DNA of 7,593 nucleotides from a virus (Duplodnaviria; Heunggongvirae; Uroviricota; Caudoviricetes), in IMG/VR virus record IMGVR_UViG_2529293142_000030, positions 1 to 7,593 of that record; one strand, given 5' to 3'. Below the pieces are notes generated by a model. The model made no database searches, was not told the origin of the DNA, and saw only the letters and a program-made list of their open reading frames with translations. Below, one piece after another: positions 1 through 7,593 of this stretch (the stretch's first letter is position 1; each line of letters starts with the position of its first letter). A program made the position numbers and the translations under genes.

Positions 1-315
1 CTAGAAAATCTGCATAAGGGGGAGAAATCCCCCACCTGTAATAACATAACTACTAAAATTAACACCTTGTTCGCACAACTCCTCCACCAGCACGACAAGA
101 TGCCGCACACTGCGCCCCAGCCGATCCAGCTTCCAGACAACCAGAGTGTCACCTGCCGATAATGTCCTGAGCAGTTTTTTCAGTCCCGGCCTTTCGGACT
201 TTGTACCGCTTATCTTGTCTTCAAAAAACAGCTCGCATCCTGCACAGTTCAGCGCATTACGTTGTAGATCTGTGTTCTGGTCATTTGTTGACACACGTAC
301 ATAGCCAATAAGCAT
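1..315 (-). pseudogene. Serine DNA invertase (Hin/Gin/Pin/Cin family), 3'-truncated: only ~92 family-like N-terminal residues, then 17 unrelated codons and a stop
   Basis: Minus-strand ORF. From ATG at 315-313 it reads MLIGYVRVSTNDQNTDLQRNAL...GDTLVVWKLDRLGRS...EELCEQGVNF, matching the N-terminal catalytic domain of Gin/Pin/Hin invertases (catalytic Ser in VRVSTNDQ). After ...VNF (plus coord ~55-58) the expected continuation (RSLTDSIDTSS..GRFFFHV.. and the C-terminal HTH domain) is absent in all three frames; the ORF ends at TAG 3-1. RBS GGGAG lies ~8 nt upstream of ATG 315. The extra N-terminal residues in the ORF track ([12 protein letters not shown], 351-316) are an upstream extension, not gene. 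Confidence 0.75.
18..33 (-). terminator. Possible stem-loop at the 3' end of the truncated invertase ORF (6-bp GC stem, 4-nt loop)
   Basis: Plus strand 18-33 = GGGGGA GAAA TCCCCC, a perfect 6-bp inverted repeat. On the minus strand the hairpin is followed by TTATGCAGATTTTCT, only moderately U-rich. Weak support as a rho-independent terminator. Confidence 0.25.
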
Positions 316-369
316 GGTAGATCTCCCTGACAAAAGCAGGAATGATGCCATTTGCTCGTTATTTCTGCA

Positions 370-395
370 TTTTCATAAACGTTGGTTTGGGAGAA
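370..395. other. 26-bp invertase crossover site (hix/gix/pix-like), invertase-proximal boundary of the invertible segment
   Basis: TTTTCATAAACG-TT-GGTTTGGGAGAA: two 12-bp half-sites resembling the Hin/Gin half-site (TTATCaAAAACC-like) around a central dinucleotide at 382-383. The inner half plus core (382-395) is the exact reverse complement of 2240-2253. Confidence 0.7.
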
Positions 396-755
396 GCGGC
401 AAAACGGGGGGTGGGAACAGGGGAAAATCAGATACCGGACATGGCTTCATTTAGTGGGGTGAGGGATTATTACGGAAAACAACTTTTGCCAGGAGGGTTG
501 ATACTTCAGTGGCTGACGATTCCATCAAGTGCAGCAGCCAAAGCTGTAACACTGAATAATGGTAATTATCAGCTGTCAGGGTATAAATGGCCCCAGTCAT
601 TTGGTGTCCTGTTTGCTGTGTTTGCTACAAAAGTTTCTGGCTCGACTAACGAAGCATATGCAATCTCAGTTAATCGTCACTCTACCGATGTAATTGTCAC
701 CTGGAATGCCCGTAAGGCTGATGATGTCCACATTTTAGGAATTGGGAAATTATGA
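384..755 (+). CDS. Silent alternative tail-fibre C-terminal (receptor-binding) cassette; promoterless and start-less, expressed only after inversion as a fusion to the constant fibre N-terminus
   Basis: Open frame from the crossover core to TGA 753-755 (123 codons: [20 protein letters not shown]...HILGIGKL). It is in the same codon phase relative to the crossover dinucleotide as the expressed fibre gene. Its stop overlaps the downstream tfa start (ATGA at 752-755). The ORF-track N-terminus 342-383 lies outside the segment and is not considered real. Confidence 0.6.
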
Positions 756-1171
756 AAATGAAATGGTCCCCATCTGTTCAGGGATTTTTCTCTGAAAATA
801 ACAGCGATATTCCCGATGATGCTTTCGATATTGAAGATGCTCTTTATTATGAACTTATGAATGGTCAGAGTACGGGGAAAATTATTATCAATAACCCGGA
901 TAACTACCCTGTACTTACTGAATATCCAGCGAAGACACAGGAACAGGAAATAGCTGAAGCGGAGGGAATGAAAAGTATACTTATTGAACAGGCCAACGAA
1001 TACATGAACAGTAAGCAATGGCCTGGTAAAGCCGCTATTGGTCGTCTGAAAGGTGAGGAACTGGCGCAATATAATTTGTGGCTGGATTACCTGGACGCAC
1101 TGGAACTGGTGGATACCTCCAGTGCCCCAGATATTGAATGGCCTACGCCTCCGGCAGTTCAGGCCAGATGA
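752..1171 (+). CDS. Tail-fibre assembly protein (Tfa/gpU-type chaperone) paired with the silent fibre cassette
   Basis: 139 aa with the conserved Tfa C-terminal signature ...[28 protein letters not shown] 752 overlaps the stop of the upstream cassette. Convergent with, and overlapping by 29 bp, the other tfa gene. Confidence 0.8.
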
Positions 1172-1745
1172 CATCAGGCGCGGTGCTGGTATCTGTTGCC
1201 GCCACCGCGTCAATGTAATCCAGCACAGCGTTAAGCCGGTTTTTTTCTGCCTGCATCAGCTTCCGTCCGGCCTGTAATTTCAGCTGAATCAGACTAATGG
1301 AAGCCATTGCAGCATCAATCAGTGACTGGCGCTGTGCTTCTGCCGCTTCTACAGCGGCGCTATGCTGTGCCTCGGTATCCGTGACCCATTTCTCACCATC
1401 CCATTTATCGTATGGCGTTAACGGGACGATAGTGGTTGTATTTTCAGGGTAATCACCCGGAGCTGTGATTTCTTTTGATTCTCCCGTTTCGGTGTTATAG
1501 ACAACTTCTCCGCGATGGTCTGGCACATATTCCCATGAGTTTAAATCTGCCGAACGGCAGATTGCATAACCAGCCTTATGTGTGCCAGGAGCATCTAAAC
1601 AGGAATATGCAGGGATACCGACACCCACAGCAAGATATTCAGTTGATGTGGAAATATATTCCCGTGTTTCACCATCATAATTATAAACGGTAATATCTCC
1701 CGCCTTTGTGGTGATGAGTTCCTTATTTAATATAGCTTTATCCAT
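1143..1745 (-). CDS. Tail-fibre assembly protein (Tfa/gpU-type chaperone) for the currently expressed fibre
   Basis: 200 aa ending ...[27 protein letters not shown] (conserved Tfa C-terminus). The start overlaps the fibre stop as TGATG (1747-1743), indicating translational coupling. Confidence 0.85.
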   Translation of the reverse strand: MDKAILNKELITTKAGDITVYNYDGETREYISTSTEYLAVGVGIPAYSCLDAPGTHKAGYAICRSADLNSWEYVPDHRGEVVYNTETGESKEITAPGDYPENTTTIVPLTPYDKWDGEKWVTDTEAQHSAAVEAAEAQRQSLIDAAMASISLIQLKLQAGRKLMQAEKNRLNAVLDYIDAVAATDTSTAPDVIWPELPEA

Positions 1746-2608
1746 CAGGCAGCCCTTACGATATAATTAAAAGCGATGTTACGAGGACGAGTTTCTGTAC
1801 CTACATTTCCACTAATTTCGCCAAAACGTTTTACACTACGAGTACTAATAGCTCGTAGTGAGGAAGGTACCTTAATACCGGGTTCGTCTGTTTTAACTAT
1901 TCCCCCGTCACCGTATGTAGCCAGTATTCCTGGGTTTACGCCTTCCCGTGCACTTCCTGCGGCGAGTCCGCCCCCTGTCCATAATTCCATATAGTGTGCA
2001 TGGTCCAAAATTGTGTGTGGCTGCCAATTAAGCAAAGCGCGACCAGTATCAATCCCGCGACCGTCATCCCAGCCACGAATAAATTCACCGCGTAAATCAG
2101 GCAATTTATTGGTCGGGTAAGCCTTTGCCAGTTCCGGGTATTCTTCAGCAGAAAAAGCCGCACCATTGCATTTCAGCCAGCCTGTTGGCGGTGTGGCTGA
2201 AGGCCACGGAACAGGTACACCAACGGGTAACGCTGAGCCTTCTCCCAAACCAAGGTTTTCGAGAGCCGTTTTCACCGTGCCATCCGATTTGATATCGCCA
2301 AACGGATTCTTGCGGCTCAGGTATTCAACAGCAAACCCCGATCCCAGCAATTCAACAAAACCGGGCAGATCACCATTATCAAGCACATCCCGTTGCGTTT
2401 TATCACTTACAAACTGGGCCAGAGCTGCAGCAATAAAGCTGGCCTGCCGAATAACCTTATTGACTTGCGCACTGGAGGCTTTCCCTGCTGTAAATCCAGA
2501 TAAAAGCGCGGGCAACGCTTCCCATTCCTCCTGCGATATAACATTGGCATTTCGATCCGTTGCAAACGCTTTAAAGTCATTTTTCGCCATCAGAGTAATA
2601 CTCCCCAT
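1745..2608 (-). CDS. Tail fibre protein; constant N-terminal part (outside segment) fused to a variable C-terminal collar-type receptor-binding domain (inside segment)
   Basis: 287-aa ORF. The C-terminal part carries the phage tail-collar/fibre motif set (GWLKCNG...[22 protein letters not shown]...[15 protein letters not shown]). The crossover site sits at codons ~114-122 ([10 protein letters not shown]). Alternative start ATG 2590 (MAKNDF...) overlaps the upstream gene stop as TGATG and has GGGGAG ~10 nt upstream, so the true start may be 2590 rather than 2608. Confidence 0.8.
2240..2265. other. 26-bp invertase crossover site (hix/gix/pix-like), distal boundary of the invertible segment, inside the tail-fibre gene
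   Basis: TTCTCCCAAACC-AA-GGTTTTCGAGAG. The outer half-site reverse complement is CTCTCGAAAACC (hix-like TTCTTGAAAACC). The inner 14 bp are the perfect inverted copy of 382-395. Confidence 0.7.
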
Positions 2609-3270
2609 GCTCCTACATCAAAACCACTGATGAATTCGTTATCCATATCAAAACCAAAAAATTTTGAGCCTTCCGATGGGGTTTCCACCGAAGGTGTTTC
2701 AATGCCACCCGCCCATACCCCGGCGGCTTTTACTGTGAGATACCCCTGTTTAATTGCCGCAATTAACTCACGCGATACATCTGAAATATCAGTATCAGGA
2801 AAGACCCAGACCGATATCGTCATGTCCTGGTTATCGACTATCTGCATTCGCAGCCCGGATCCTGCTGTTGCCGCGTCAAGAATTGCCGGAAGCGAATCAT
2901 TCCGTCCGTCCCAGTTATTAATCGCAATCTTCGCTTTAAGAATGACACGATAAGTTTCATCGCTGAGATACATGTATCCTGAATCAGGATCGTATGGTCC
3001 CTGCCATACCCCCTGATCATATCCAAGCCCGTCGGTATCCCAGCTGAAATAGACACCTGAGATAGGCTGGCTGACAACACGGCTACGTCCGATCCACAAT
3101 CCAAGGATGTCAAGTTGCACACCAACCGCAGAGTCAATATCAAATGCACTAATCAGCCCTCTGGTGGCAGCCGCAACATCAATAAGTGGCCGGGTCATCA
3201 GATCAACATGCGCAAGAAATTTAGGTTTGGTGGCGTGGTAGTTCGTGATTAGTTCGGTGTATTTGCTCAT
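2590..3270 (-). CDS. Phage tail/baseplate protein, P2 gpI / Mu gp48-like (YmfQ/DUF2313-like)
   Basis: 226-aa ORF in the synteny position between the baseplate J-like gene and the tail fibre. Start ATG 3270 overlaps the J stop (ATGA). Assignment is by position and general resemblance to e14 YmfQ-type proteins, not by a clear motif. Confidence 0.6.
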
Positions 3271-4466
3271 GACTCCACCGTTATAACGATATTTTCCGGG
3301 GTACAGGACGCAGATTCGTTGTATCTGATATCAATGTTTGATGACGACAAAGCCCCCGGGGATTTCCCAATCGTCAGTTCCTGAATATCGTAATAGCGTG
3401 CATTCCCGCCACTCACCACGCCAAGATTCGCCGGTGAGTAAATGCGACTTAAAAGGACCGAATCACCAATCATCAGACTATTGATATAGTCGGAAATAGC
3501 CTGCTGGATCTGCTGCCCTATCTGTGAGGTATAACCCGTAAAAACTTTTAATTTGATCCGGGCATAAACAGGTACATCACTGGAACGCGAGAACTTGATT
3601 ACATGGGGATTGCCGTATTTATCCGGAACCGTAACGGATGTTGTACCGTGAGTGGCTGTCCCCTGACCTTTATTCCCTCTGATAGCCTGAGCAATATCCG
3701 TCACATCACCGCCATCCACAATTACAGCAACAGAGTGTGGCGGTAACCCGTTACCGTCCTCCGAACCAGTATCGTTTTCATAGAGTTTGTGGCGGGTTAC
3801 ACCTGTAACATTAGAAACAGCACCATCCAGTGCTTCAAATGGGGTTATTGATGGCAACGCAACACTTTGCGACTGGCGGATACGTAACTCAGCGTCAGTT
3901 TCTGCCGGAGTGCCCACAGTGGCTGCAGCAGGATTGGTTACCGAAACCCAGCCACGGGTTGGCGTATTAATTTCAGTGATAGTTCCAGCCAGCGCCGCCA
4001 CTGCACCACTGACGGAACATGTTGCGGTCACCATCACTGTACCATCCACGCCTACCACCACTGAAGCAGGCAAACGCCATATCACATTATTACTGTCTTT
4101 CACGCTGCCATTAATGATGGTTGTTCCGGCAGTTCCTGTAAGAAGCAAATCAACCGTAGAATTCGTCGCGCCTTTACGTGAAATACCATTTATTTTCACG
4201 TTACTGGTCAGTGCGGCTCCATAGCCGGTTGCTGGTGAAAAACAGTTATAGACAGTTATCGCCATATTATTGGCATCATGAATCGCCAGCGCCATCAGAG
4301 CCACCATCTGGCCGTCTTTACTGTCTGGTTCGAGGTAGGCATCACTGCCATAAATCTGCTGAAAATAGCTAATCAGGGTGCTGAGTATCGTCTGATAATC
4401 AGGCGCACTGATCCCCTCCGCGGTTACCTTTGCAGATAAACCGAGAGAATCAAGGTTCAGAGCCAT
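3267..4466 (-). CDS. Baseplate J-like protein (P2 gpJ / Mu gp47 family)
   Basis: 399-aa ORF of typical size and composition for baseplate J-family proteins. Start overlaps the upstream gene stop (TAATG at 4468-4464), stop overlaps the downstream start. Sits in the conserved V-W-J-I-fibre order. Confidence 0.75.
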   Translation of the reverse strand: MALNLDSLGLSAKVTAEGISAPDYQTILSTLISYFQQIYGSDAYLEPDSKDGQMVALMALAIHDANNMAITVYNCFSPATGYGAALTSNVKINGISRKGATNSTVDLLLTGTAGTTIINGSVKDSNNVIWRLPASVVVGVDGTVMVTATCSVSGAVAALAGTITEINTPTRGWVSVTNPAAATVGTPAETDAELRIRQSQSVALPSITPFEALDGAVSNVTGVTRHKLYENDTGSEDGNGLPPHSVAVIVDGGDVTDIAQAIRGNKGQGTATHGTTSVTVPDKYGNPHVIKFSRSSDVPVYARIKLKVFTGYTSQIGQQIQQAISDYINSLMIGDSVLLSRIYSPANLGVVSGGNARYYDIQELTIGKSPGALSSSNIDIRYNESASCTPENIVITVES

Positions 4467-4819
4467 TACGCCTCCGATGTAACAGTCGTTATTCCATAGA
4501 GAGTGTCGATTTCAGTGGAAAACCTGACACGTCGGGTCGTGGTATCCACCGTAGTATTGAAAGAGAGGATTGATTTAACGCCCCGCGTTTCGAGGATGCG
4601 CTTACGGATCGCCAAGTTGTAGGTTTCCGGCTTCTGCTTACCGAGTACGGACTGGATCCACGGAGTCCCCTCGGTGGTGTCGAGAAACCATTGCCCATAC
4701 CACAATTCGAATCGCGTTTTTACCGCCTGCGCCACGGCCTCCGGTGAGTTAATCAGCCAGGTGTCATCACCGCTGCCAAAGGTGTAATCGCCATCGGCGT
4801 CTTCACGTCTGTATCGCAT
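4466..4819 (-). CDS. Small baseplate protein, gpW / Mu gp46-like (gp25-type wedge protein), assigned by position
   Basis: 117-aa ORF, coupled on both sides (TGATG at 4821-4817; TAATG at 4468-4464). Size and location between the V-like and J-like genes match gpW/gp46. No strong motif recognised. Confidence 0.55.
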   Translation of the reverse strand: MRYRREDADGDYTFGSGDDTWLINSPEAVAQAVKTRFELWYGQWFLDTTEGTPWIQSVLGKQKPETYNLAIRKRILETRGVKSILSFNTTVDTTTRRVRFSTEIDTLYGITTVTSEA

Positions 4820-5481
4820 CAGTTTACTCCGTCGGTATTGCTTCCACCGCGCTGAACACCACCATGAGTGTGCGTATCATCGATTGGCTTGCCGTTAGCC
4901 TTCACGCTACCCAAAAACTCAACAGCACCAGTGATTTTTGAAGCCACACCAGAAACCACAGACCCCACCATGCCACCCATCCAGGTTAACAGGCCATGTA
5001 TGGTTACTTTCTCAGAAAAATCAGCCAGAGGGGCAACCACATCAAGACCACCCGGAGCGACAATTTTAATTTTCCTGGTATCAGGATTAAGCTCAAAATA
5101 GGTGCTGCCGTCGTCACTACGCAACTGTGTGGCACTGGTATTAATACCGCTAATCTTCCTCGCCTGCGACTGGGGACCGACAATACAAAACGCATCCGAT
5201 AAATCATGCATTCTGTCATCAACAGGCTCCTGTATCCCGCCGTTCTGCCACCAGAAATCAATACAACGATCGGCAAAAACGACAAGACACTCATCCCCGG
5301 CTTTTACCGGAAAAGTCAACGTACAGCCTCCGCCGCGCGGGAATACCACTGGCACATCCACCAGCAATGGGTAATTTTTGGTAATGCGGTTACCGTAGTT
5401 ATCCTTTTCAACCGAACGGATAGCTGGCTGCACAACCGCCGTCACCGCGTCAGGATCGAATGACTGAATAATGCCAGGCAA
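4819..5481 (-). pseudogene. Baseplate spike/hub protein, P2 gpV / Mu gp45-like, 5'-truncated by the IS66-family insertion
   Basis: 220-codon open frame with a gpV-like C-terminus (..GKPIDDTHTHGGVQRGGSNTDGVN) and a GII-containing N-terminal region that in P2 gpV lies ~20 residues in. No ATG start: the frame opens at a TTG at 5481-5479, directly abutting the IS end, and upstream in-frame codons are IS sequence with a stop at 5517-5515. The body of the gene is otherwise uninterrupted. Confidence 0.6.
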
Positions 5482-5568
5482 GGGTAAGCGTAAACCGACC
5501 GCCGTATGTAGCCATTAGACAAGAATTGGTAACTTAGACGCCCATCTGACACAGACGGACATCTAAGT

Positions 5569-5988
5569 ATGGAATTACAGGACTGGCGAAAAGAACCTCG
5601 TAAAAAGTATTCGAATGAATTCAAACTTCGTATGGTTGAACTGGCATCACAACCCGGTGCTTGTGTGGCTCAGATTGCACGAGAAAATGGCGTCAATGAT
5701 AATGTTATTTTCAAATGGCTCAGACTCTGGCAAAACGAAGGGCGTATATCACGGCGTCTTCCGGTGACAACCACTTCTGACGCAGGCCTTGAATTATTAC
5801 CTGTAGAGATAACGCCTGATGAGCCGAAAGAACCGATGGCTGCTCTTACTCCGCCCTTATCCACTCAGACTACTGTCAGTGCCAGCTCCTGCAAGGTGGA
5901 GTTCCGTCACGGTAACATGACGCTGGAAAATCCTTCACCAGAGCTGCTCACTGTATTGATTCGTGAACTGACCGGGAGGGGAAGATGA
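5569..5988 (+). CDS. tnpA: IS66-family accessory protein TnpA (orfA, HTH-containing)
   Basis: 139 aa with the typical IS66 orfA segment ...FKLRMVELASQPGACVAQIARENGVNDNVIFKWLR... Stop overlaps the orfB start (ATGA at 5985-5988). Confidence 0.85.
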   Translation: MELQDWRKEPRKKYSNEFKLRMVELASQPGACVAQIARENGVNDNVIFKWLRLWQNEGRISRRLPVTTTSDAGLELLPVEITPDEPKEPMAALTPPLSTQTTVSASSCKVEFRHGNMTLENPSPELLTVLIRELTGRGR

Positions 5989-6317
5989 TCTCACTCCCAT
6001 CCGGTACCCGTATCTGGCTCGTTGCCGGGATAACCGATATGCGTAAGTCTTTCAACGGGCTGGGTGAACAGGTACAGCATGTGTTAAATGTTAATCCCTT
6101 CTCCGGTCACCTGTTTATCTTCCGTGGCCGACGGGGTGACACCGTTAAAATTCTTTGGGCTGATGCTGATGGTCTGTGCCTGTTCACCAAACGTCTGGAG
6201 GAAGGCCAGTTTATCTGGCCTGCGGTGCGTGACGGTAAGGTATCCATTACCCGCTCGCAACTGGCAATGCTCCTCGATAAGCTGGACTGGCGTCAGCCAA
6301 AAAACATCCCGCCTTAA
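5985..6317 (+). CDS. tnpB: IS66-family Orf2 protein TnpB
   Basis: 110 aa, MISLPSGTRIWLVAGITDMRKSFNGLGEQV...LFIFRGRRGDTVKILWADADGLCLFTKRLEEGQFIWP: the hallmark IS66 Orf2 pattern. Translationally coupled to orfA. Confidence 0.9.
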   Translation: MISLPSGTRIWLVAGITDMRKSFNGLGEQVQHVLNVNPFSGHLFIFRGRRGDTVKILWADADGLCLFTKRLEEGQFIWPAVRDGKVSITRSQLAMLLDKLDWRQPKNIPP

Positions 6318-6367
6318 CGCCCTGACAATGTTGTAAAAAACGCCTGGCCGCATTATAAAAACGGCCA

Positions 6368-7593
6368 TGAGTCAGAAATACCTCATTCGCATTGCAGAAC
6401 TGGAAAGCCAGCTCCGTCAGAAAGACCAGCAACTGAGTCTGGTTGAAGAGACGGCGGCCTTCCTGCGCTCTGCACTGGCACGTGCCGAAGAAAAGATCGA
6501 AGAGGATGAACGGGAAATAGAACATCTGCGGGCTCAGATAGAAAAACTGCGCCGGATGCTGTTCGGTACCCGTTCTGAAAAACTGCGTCGTGAAGTTGAA
6601 CAGGCTGAGGCCCTGCTGAAACAACGCGAACAGGACAGCGATCGTTGCAGTGGGCGGGAAGACGATCCACAGGTTCCCCGCCAGTTGCGACAGTCGCGCC
6701 ATCGTCGTCCGTTACCGGCACACCTTCCCCGTGAAATACACCGTCTGGAGTCTGAAGAAAGCTGTTGCCCGGAGTGTGGCGGTGAGCTGGATTATCTGGG
6801 GGAAGTCAGTGCAGAACAACTGGAACTGGTGAGCAGCGCCCTGAAAGTGATCCGCACAGAACGGGTAAAAAAAGCCTGTACAAAATGTGACTGCATCGTT
6901 GAAGCACCGGCGCCGTCCCGCCCGATAGAGCGTGGTATCGCGGGCCCCGGATTACTTGCCCGCGTGTTAACGGGAAAATACTGCGAACACCTGCCACTGT
7001 ATCGTCAGAGTGAAATCTTTGCCCGACAGGGTGTCGAACTGAGCCGTGCATTACTCTCCAACTGGGTTGACGCGTGCTGCCAGTTAATGACACCGCTGAA
7101 TGATGCCCTGTACCGTTATGTGATGAATACCCGCAAGCTTCACACTGACGACACACCGGTAAAGGTACTGGCACCGGGCCTGAAAAAGACGAAAACAGGG
7201 CGCATCTGGACGTATGTCCGGGATGATCGCAATGCGGGTTCGTCATCTCCTCCGGCGGTCTGGTTCGCGTACTCACCGAACCGGCAGGGGAAACACCCGG
7301 AGCAACACCTCCGCCCCTTCCGGGGTATCCTGCAGGCGGATGCGTTCACAGGTTATGACAGGCTGTTCAGTGCAGAACGTGAAGGTGGTGCGCTGACAGA
7401 AGTTGCGTGCTGGGCCCATGCCCGGAGAAAAATCCACGATGTATACATCAGCAGCAAAAGTGCGACGGCAGAAGAAGCCCTGAAGCGAATCAGTGAACTG
7501 TACGCCATCGAGGATGAAATACGGGGATTACCAGAGTCAGAGCGTCTTGCAGTCAGACAGCAGCGAAGCAAAGCGTTAACTGACGTCGCTGCA
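6368..7593 (+). CDS. tnpC: IS66-family DDE transposase TnpC, 3'-partial (first ~408 codons; continues beyond window)
   Basis: Own translation from ATG 6368 (in-frame stop at 6356-6358 upstream): MSQKYLIRIAELESQLRQKDQQL... (coiled-coil/leucine-zipper-like N-terminus), zinc-finger motif CCPECGGEL..(x)..CTKCDC, then ..GKYCEHLPLYRQSEIFARQGVELSRALLSNWV...HTDDTPVKVL...RIWTYVRDDRNAG...PAVWFAYSPNRQGKHP...CWAHARRKIHDVY.., all typical of IS66 transposases. No stop before 7593. It is absent from the supplied ORF track because it lacks an in-window stop. Confidence 0.9.

Follow-up and report, generated by a model that had tools for sequence, protein, structure and literature searches.

A tail-fibre inversion switch behind a truncated pin gene in an Escherichia coli prophage occurs in both orientations and is probably inverted in trans

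We analyzed a 7,593-nt stretch of caudovirus DNA (positions 1 to 7,593 of IMG/VR virus record IMGVR_UViG_2529293142_000030), hereafter referred to as the window. Its left end carries the remnant of an e14-type pin gene, which encodes a serine DNA invertase. Next to the remnant lies an invertible segment bounded by two crossover sites and holding alternative tail-fibre ends and tail-fibre assembly genes, and further to the right, a baseplate spike gene is interrupted by an IS66-family element (Table 1).

Table 1. Annotated features of the window, in nucleotide positions
Feature	Position	Strand	Remarks
Truncated pin pseudogene remnant, e14-type PinE serine DNA invertase	1..315	-	104-aa ORF; ATG 315-313, stop 3-1
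Sequence unrelated to pin	1..48	.	3' flank of a 281-aa convergent ORF situated immediately to the left
GC hairpin GGGGGA-GAAA-TCCCCC	18..33	.	21 nt past the stop codon of the convergent 281-aa ORF
Pin-homologous part, residues 1-89	49..315	-	Ser9 nucleophile in YVRVST motif; nucleotide comparison with K-12 pinE
Pin-proximal 26-bp crossover site, TTCTCCCAAACC-AA-CGTTTATGAAAA	370..395	-	0 mismatches to Gin/Hin-type consensus
Invertible segment, e14 P-segment type, ~1.87 kb	382..2253	.	Inversion end-points in related genomes lie exactly within both sites
Silent alternative fibre C-terminus (Sv')	384..755	+	Weak Gp53-like_C match
Silent tail-fibre assembly gene (U')	752..1171	+	Caudo_TAP, E=5.7e-24
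Tail-fibre assembly gene, currently expressed orientation	1143..1745	-	Caudo_TAP, E=3.9e-31
Currently assembled tail-fibre gene, 281 aa	1745..2590	-	Collar domain
Second 26-bp crossover site, TTCTCCCAAACC-AA-GGTTTTCGAGAG	2240..2265	+	Inside the tail-fibre gene
Spike gene remnant	4819-5481	-	220 aa
IS66-family element in the baseplate spike gene	5484..7593	+	HTH_Tnp_1, TnpB_IS66; inverted repeat GTAAGCG from 5484
IS66 tnpA	5569-5988		
IS66 tnpB	5985-6317		

The ORF at the left end of the window opens with MLIGYVRVST, that is, with the N-terminal catalytic domain and its serine nucleophile, and residues 1-89 of the product align with both Gin and PinE. The Pfam Resolvase profile (PF00239) matches the 104-aa remnant with E=1e-28 over profile positions 2-98 of 145 only, and the Pfam search gave no HTH_7 match in it. 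The intact PinE of strain JNEC-KY208, which is encoded at the same chromosomal locus, has the Resolvase domain at residues 3-135, covering profile positions 2-144, and HTH_7 at residues 138-180. The initial annotation had the match to the Pin family run through the catalytic domain, but about one-third of this domain is absent from the remnant. The alignment to full-length family members that was proposed there bears out the truncation: against the solved Gin of phage Mu (3uj3/4m6f), the remnant aligns to residues 1-91 only (E=3e-41), with the Ser9 motif included and, unlike the 193-residue Gin, without the last part of the catalytic core and without helix E or the HTH domain.

In nucleotide sequence, the remnant is identical to e14 pinE of K-12 at 234 of 240 positions (~98%) over its first 240 nt (residues 1-80), whereas the next 27 nt (nt 241-267; window 75-49; residues 81-89) are decayed, with 19 of 27 positions identical. 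Homology to pin stops at window 48/49, corresponding to codon 89/90, with decay already from ~78, and the last 15 codons and the stop codon of the remnant (window 1-48) are unrelated to pin. These limits replace the breakpoint at ~55-58 and the 17 unrelated codons of the initial annotation, the latter number resulting from a count that began after ...VNF. The missing half was searched for with PinE residues 90-184 as a tblastn query, and the best match in the window and in related loci with 5-13 kb of leftward DNA had E=0.65; neither the remaining part of the catalytic domain nor helix E nor the HTH domain is present in the window, and related genomes do not have them in 10-20 kb of flanking sequence either. 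Thus, as originally proposed, the gene was cut by a breakpoint rather than a frameshift, and the helix E region and the DNA-binding domain are gone.

Helix E of Gin is the dimer/tetramer interface, and to our knowledge, all characterized small serine invertases possess this helix together with an HTH domain. The remnant has neither the complete catalytic domain, including helix E, nor the C-terminal HTH DNA-binding domain of a functional member of the family, and the position beside the segment where a functional cognate invertase would be expected is taken by this truncated gene. Judged by its sequence, the remnant is a pseudogene fragment, namely, the inactive 5' half of a pin gene of the e14 type, and from the domain requirements of serine invertases, we infer that its product would be unable to recombine DNA.

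The probability that the gene is not truncated, either because the start of the window is an artefact or because the product is a naturally short functional family member, appears practically negligible. In favour of such a reading, the 104-aa frame is uninterrupted and its exact product is widespread, with 1744 blocks of the assembly collection listing it; however, helix E and the HTH domain of characterized family members are missing, and every place among those listed for the exact protein adjoins yfhH, as do all related loci that we fetched, which represent one and the same locus. Furthermore, the junction (window 1-75) is found in 48 complete E. coli chromosomes, in 41 of them at >=99% identity and in seven at lower identity, with a single place per genome in all carriers but one, with the 281-aa ORF beyond the junction, and with no C-terminal half nearby. 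A contig or window-edge artefact, which the initial annotation had considered as a possible objection, is thereby rejected. RefSeq annotates the junction as “recombinase family protein, incomplete, missing C-terminus”, so that the pseudogene status was already on record. The truncated allele was encountered within E. coli collections only, and an exact search of the GTDB species-representative genomes with window 36-80 produced no match.

Left of the window, related genomes carry, in order, the convergent 281-aa ORF, a 489-bp stretch with an 88-aa ORF, and the interrupted yfhL gene. The 281-aa ORF (8151-8996 in L002 and 7292-8137 in L013) stops 4 nt before window position 1 in L002 and is carried by a 1.18-kb cassette that abuts the break in pin and fills the slot from there to the prophage end. 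Searches of Pfam, PADLOC, PHROGs, and NCBIfam with the 281-aa protein were negative, and its PDB match was at chance level (E=0.52). In complete E. coli genomes, this ORF is always accompanied by the truncated pin (44 genomes). The integration site of the prophage lies in yfhL, 48 nt from the start of this gene (L002 7375/7376), so that yfhH is split from the remaining part of yfhL. The 489-bp prophage end is common to a strain with intact pinE, in which the slot holds a different, 215-aa ORF and the 3' half of pin; in e14, the same slot holds the restriction gene mcrA. Because the 489 bp are shared with the intact-pinE strain and the content of the slot differs, the truncation is one edge of a cassette replacement inside the prophage.

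Two other candidates for what abuts the break, both suggested at the outset, were rejected. An IS end does not fit, since window 1-48 runs on into an ordinary ORF-bearing cassette, and the window contains no IS other than the IS66 element from 5484; a prophage boundary does not fit, since homology to K-12 ends 1.67 kb further left, inside yfhL. The 88-aa ORF was also considered as yfhL itself and rejected, having neither Fer4 nor any other match. The GC hairpin that had been noticed next to the break holds up on folding, with a dG of -14.6 kcal/mol in context (z=-2.9; 0/200 shuffles fold equally well). It has no T tract, and the terminator scan was negative; its assignment as a canonical intrinsic terminator was rejected for want of the T tract, and it is possibly the 3'-end stem-loop of the transcript of the convergent 281-aa ORF.

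The tail module of the prophage includes baseplate genes of the Pam3/E217-like type, unlike that of e14. The spike ORF is 220 aa long in the window versus 250 aa in the uninterrupted relative L012, and the IS66 element that cuts it, of which tnpC runs beyond the end of the window, shares 99.9% identity with plasmid-borne IS66 copies of E. coli and E. albertii. As the element disrupts the baseplate spike gene, the prophage, which is myovirus-like, is defective. Within tnpB, the window has an extra A in an A run at position 6304 (A6 versus A5 in the otherwise identical L014), which shifts the frame and shortens the product from 116 to 110 aa; the extra A is either genuine or due to a sequencing error in the homopolymer.

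The two crossover sites are mutually inverted, and both have an AA core; in the scan with the Gin/Hin-type consensus, 0.01 matches were expected by chance. The pin-proximal site is identical in all related loci, and the inner halves of both sites agree in 15/16 bases with the published e14 P-segment repeat TTGGTTTGGGAGAAGG (PMC12529663). The 281-aa tail fibre, of which the exact protein is on record on 22 contigs, consists of a constant N-terminal part (2590-2254) and a variable part within the invertible segment; its gene starts at 2590 and not at the start of the 287-aa ORF 1745-2608. When the segment is inverted in silico, Sv' fuses in frame with the constant part to give a 236-aa fibre, and the exact predicted protein is present in public assemblies (P0001), with the form of Sv' in the expressed orientation found in strain DEC5A. 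Like tfaP and tfaE in e14, the convergent tail-fibre assembly genes overlap at their 3' ends, here by 29 nt (1143-1171). The locus has three features of an enhancer-dependent invertible fibre segment, namely, two inverted 26-bp sites with identical central dinucleotides, in-frame fibre fusions in both orientations with alternative assembly genes, and the occurrence of both orientations with end-points at the sites. To judge from these features, the cis parts of the switch are intact, including the two sites, the two fibre ends, and the pair of assembly genes.

In Gin, Hin, and Cin systems, a Fis-dependent recombinational enhancer lies within the 5' coding region of the invertase gene. The corresponding 5' pin region (window 49-315) is the putative location of such an enhancer; the well-conserved first 240 nt of pin are retained there, and a simple Fis-motif scan gave no informative signal.

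Comparison of the window with its closest relatives shows the segment in both orientations. Three assemblies (L016, L018, and L019) are 100% identical to the window, and a fourth (L014), which extends into IS66, differs by one gap; all four have the orientation of the window. Five further assemblies (L023-L027) have flanks 99.7-100% identical to those of the window (1-396 and 2239 to the contig end), with at most one base different and with the pin-side 396 bp 100% identical in four of the five, and the inner 377-2258 is inverted. The inverted stretch differs from the window by two mismatches only, which are the outer half-site positions overlapped by the alignment. L023 continues 27 nt into the same IS66, and L024 and L025 break at the IS66 edge. 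With the inverted stretch unchanged except for the half-site positions and the flanks differing by no more than one base, the flips must be recent.

The same holds beyond the cassette type of the window: behind the exact 104-aa remnant, the segment occurs in both orientations in three different cassette types, that of the window included. Among the loci with the exact 104-aa protein, L005-L007 and L008 form an inverted pair with 99.6% identity, and L009 and L011 form another with 99.8% identity. In the O26/O111 group, strains 97-3250 and 8D share 3-kb flanks that are 100% and 99.9% identical and include the remnant and the 281-aa ORF, whereas the inner 1.6 kb is inverted, with end-points in the 20-bp repeats; among complete genomes with this cassette type, four have one orientation and five the other. 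For the ST38-type complete genomes, the corresponding numbers are 18 and three flipped. The initial annotation had left the switch as either locked or dependent on a trans-acting invertase. This pair of alternatives stands, and the near-identical genomes in both orientations decide within it: on the sequence comparisons, a locked switch is refuted for the allele and for the lineage of the window, and trans-dependence is supported.

Could the inversions have arisen without a site-specific invertase, by RecA-dependent homologous recombination between the short inverted repeats? The end-points do fall within 20-bp inverted repeats, and sequence alone cannot separate the mechanisms, but the repeat arms are perfectly identical over 15 bp at most. 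Efficient RecA recombination needs roughly 23-27 bp of homology, so RecA is an unlikely cause of repeated inversions with arms of this length. Moreover, the at least four flips among genomes with flanks 99.7-100% identical imply a high rate, longer imperfect inverted repeats within the segment never served as end-points, and the repeats used are the published Pin crossover sites (PMC12529663). We therefore consider the RecA route very unlikely.

Alternatively, the segment may not have inverted in place: the two orientations could have been acquired horizontally in separate events, or the locus could have been replaced by alleles of other prophages. The segment is mosaic, and in other genomes, at least five different cassette sets accompany this truncated pin allele. 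Window 377-2258 is 99.84% identical to the corresponding part of a prophage with intact pinE that is located beside pphA, at another chromosomal locus, in E. coli O55:H7 DEC5A (L003), and the flanks of the segment are only 95-97% identical in this comparison. This pattern suggests that invertible cassettes may be exchanged between prophages. As an account of the flipped orientation, however, acquisition is extremely unlikely, given that flipped and unflipped members share 99.7-100% identical flanks on both sides, that one flipped member has the same IS66 junction, and that the borders of any exchange would need to coincide exactly with both crossover sites, as they do in site-specific recombination.

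With repeated recent flips and repeat arms too short for efficient RecA recombination, the data are explained economically by a site-specific enzyme that acts in trans. We consider it probable, at roughly 0.8, that segment 382-2253 is inverted in trans by a serine invertase encoded elsewhere in the cell, and we infer both the trans action and the identity of the enzyme. Cross-complementation among Pin-family invertases, to which the initial annotation had appealed, is documented: PinQ and PinR of the Qin and Rac cryptic prophages invert the e14 P segment in trans at the repeat TTGGTTTGGGAGAAGG (PMC12529663), and the same paper cites inversion of the Salmonella H segment and the Mu G segment by PinE and the action of Fin of Fels-2 on the H segment. 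Flipping of the segment described here by a foreign invertase would be of the same kind. Unlike in those cases, where the targets keep their own invertase and the trans enzyme is redundant, the putative trans enzyme would here be the sole activity.

As a proxy for such helper enzymes, we counted extra places per carrier chromosome with chimeric blastn queries that joined the allele-specific cassette either to the 3' half of pinE or to pinQ; megablast alone missed most places. Every one of the seven minority-orientation complete genomes (97-3250, 97_3250, 10_253, 2003-3014, 22AR0747, MSB1_6C, and 1296KP, which are related strains) has at least one extra pinE-like or pinQ-like chromosomal place, and the 10 carriers with none all have the majority orientation; these are counts, without position, intactness, or matched query part, they cover chromosomes only (plasmids being separate records), and the strains are phylogenetically non-independent. 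As weak evidence, the counts fit trans-dependence, with locking where a helper is absent. No extra invertase-like place is present on the chromosome of strain 8D, whose orientation nonetheless differs from that of its relatives; 8D may carry the ancestral orientation, which in the O26/O111 group is an assumption.

Deletion of pinE in K-12 was reported to lock the P segment although pinQ and pinR are present (PMC12529663). This locking may reflect low native expression or activity of the trans enzymes or, alternatively, may come from loss of the enhancer in the 5' pin region, which is retained in the window. Together with the 10 helper-free carriers and a remnant that lacks every domain for DNA binding and synapsis, the K-12 result could be taken to mean that, without a cognate invertase, the fibre phase of the strain of the window is frozen in its present orientation. 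We regard this as unlikely, because assemblies with 99.7-100% identical flanks, one of them with the same IS66 junction, have the segment inverted and because two other cassette types occur behind the same allele in both orientations.

Inversion in trans would then be the outcome of the following course of events. In the cargo slot that separates pin from the end of the prophage, a cassette replacement would have brought in the 1.18-kb module with the convergent 281-aa ORF, and its right-hand junction, falling inside pin at codon 89/90, would have cost the gene the remainder of its catalytic domain together with helix E and the HTH domain. Both 26-bp sites, the fibre ends, the assembly genes, and the first 240 nt of pin survived, and inversion would be supplied by a PinE-like or PinQ/PinR-like enzyme of another prophage. 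The fibre phase is not fixed in the lineage of the window but should be fixed in strains that have no helper invertase.

The closest known counterpart is the P-segment system of e14 in K-12 (pinE, stfP/tfaP, and tfaE/stfE), with which the locus shares the order of a constant fibre part, the segment, and an invertase gene immediately past the site, as well as the content of the segment, which comprises two fibre ends plus a convergent pair of overlapping tfa genes. In addition, the remnant is ~98% identical to K-12 pinE over its first 240 nt, and the inner half-sites match the e14 repeat in all but one of 16 bases. From these likenesses, the locus would clearly appear to work like the e14 P-segment system and to derive from it. 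Unlike in e14, the invertase is cut at codon 89/90, and the cargo slot holds the 281-aa ORF in place of mcrA. The prophage itself is another element, with its Pam3/E217-like baseplate and its location in yfhL, whereas e14 resides in icd.

The situation as such is ordinary and of a known kind: RefSeq flags the invertase gene as a pseudogene, and cross-action within the Pin family has been known for decades. The small point added here is that public genomes alone show a switch that is still flipping after the loss of its own enzyme, so that “invertase pseudogene” should not be equated with “phase-locked”. Fibre inversion in a cryptic prophage can block adsorption of phage T2 (PMC12529663), and orphan switches of this kind could affect phage sensitivity. 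A further and doubtful proposal is that the 5' 240 nt of pin have been kept for the enhancer and that the fibre switch of this defective prophage is a host-retained module driven wholly by the invertases of other prophages, in which case the alternative fibres might serve the cell rather than a virion. If so, PinQ and PinR, which are reported to be induced on phage infection, would be candidate drivers, and the fibre proteins might act, for example, by receptor block like StfE2 of e14.

Finally, the pin remnant itself varies along its length and among loci. The last 30 nt of its pin homology (window 49-78) are identical to intact pinE alleles at 23/30 positions, compared with 97-100% identity elsewhere, and the pin allele of L002 has a differing N-terminal patch (Y5H, AECDRI). 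The remnant looks mosaic, as though an older, more divergent truncated copy had later been partly overwritten by recombination with other pin alleles.
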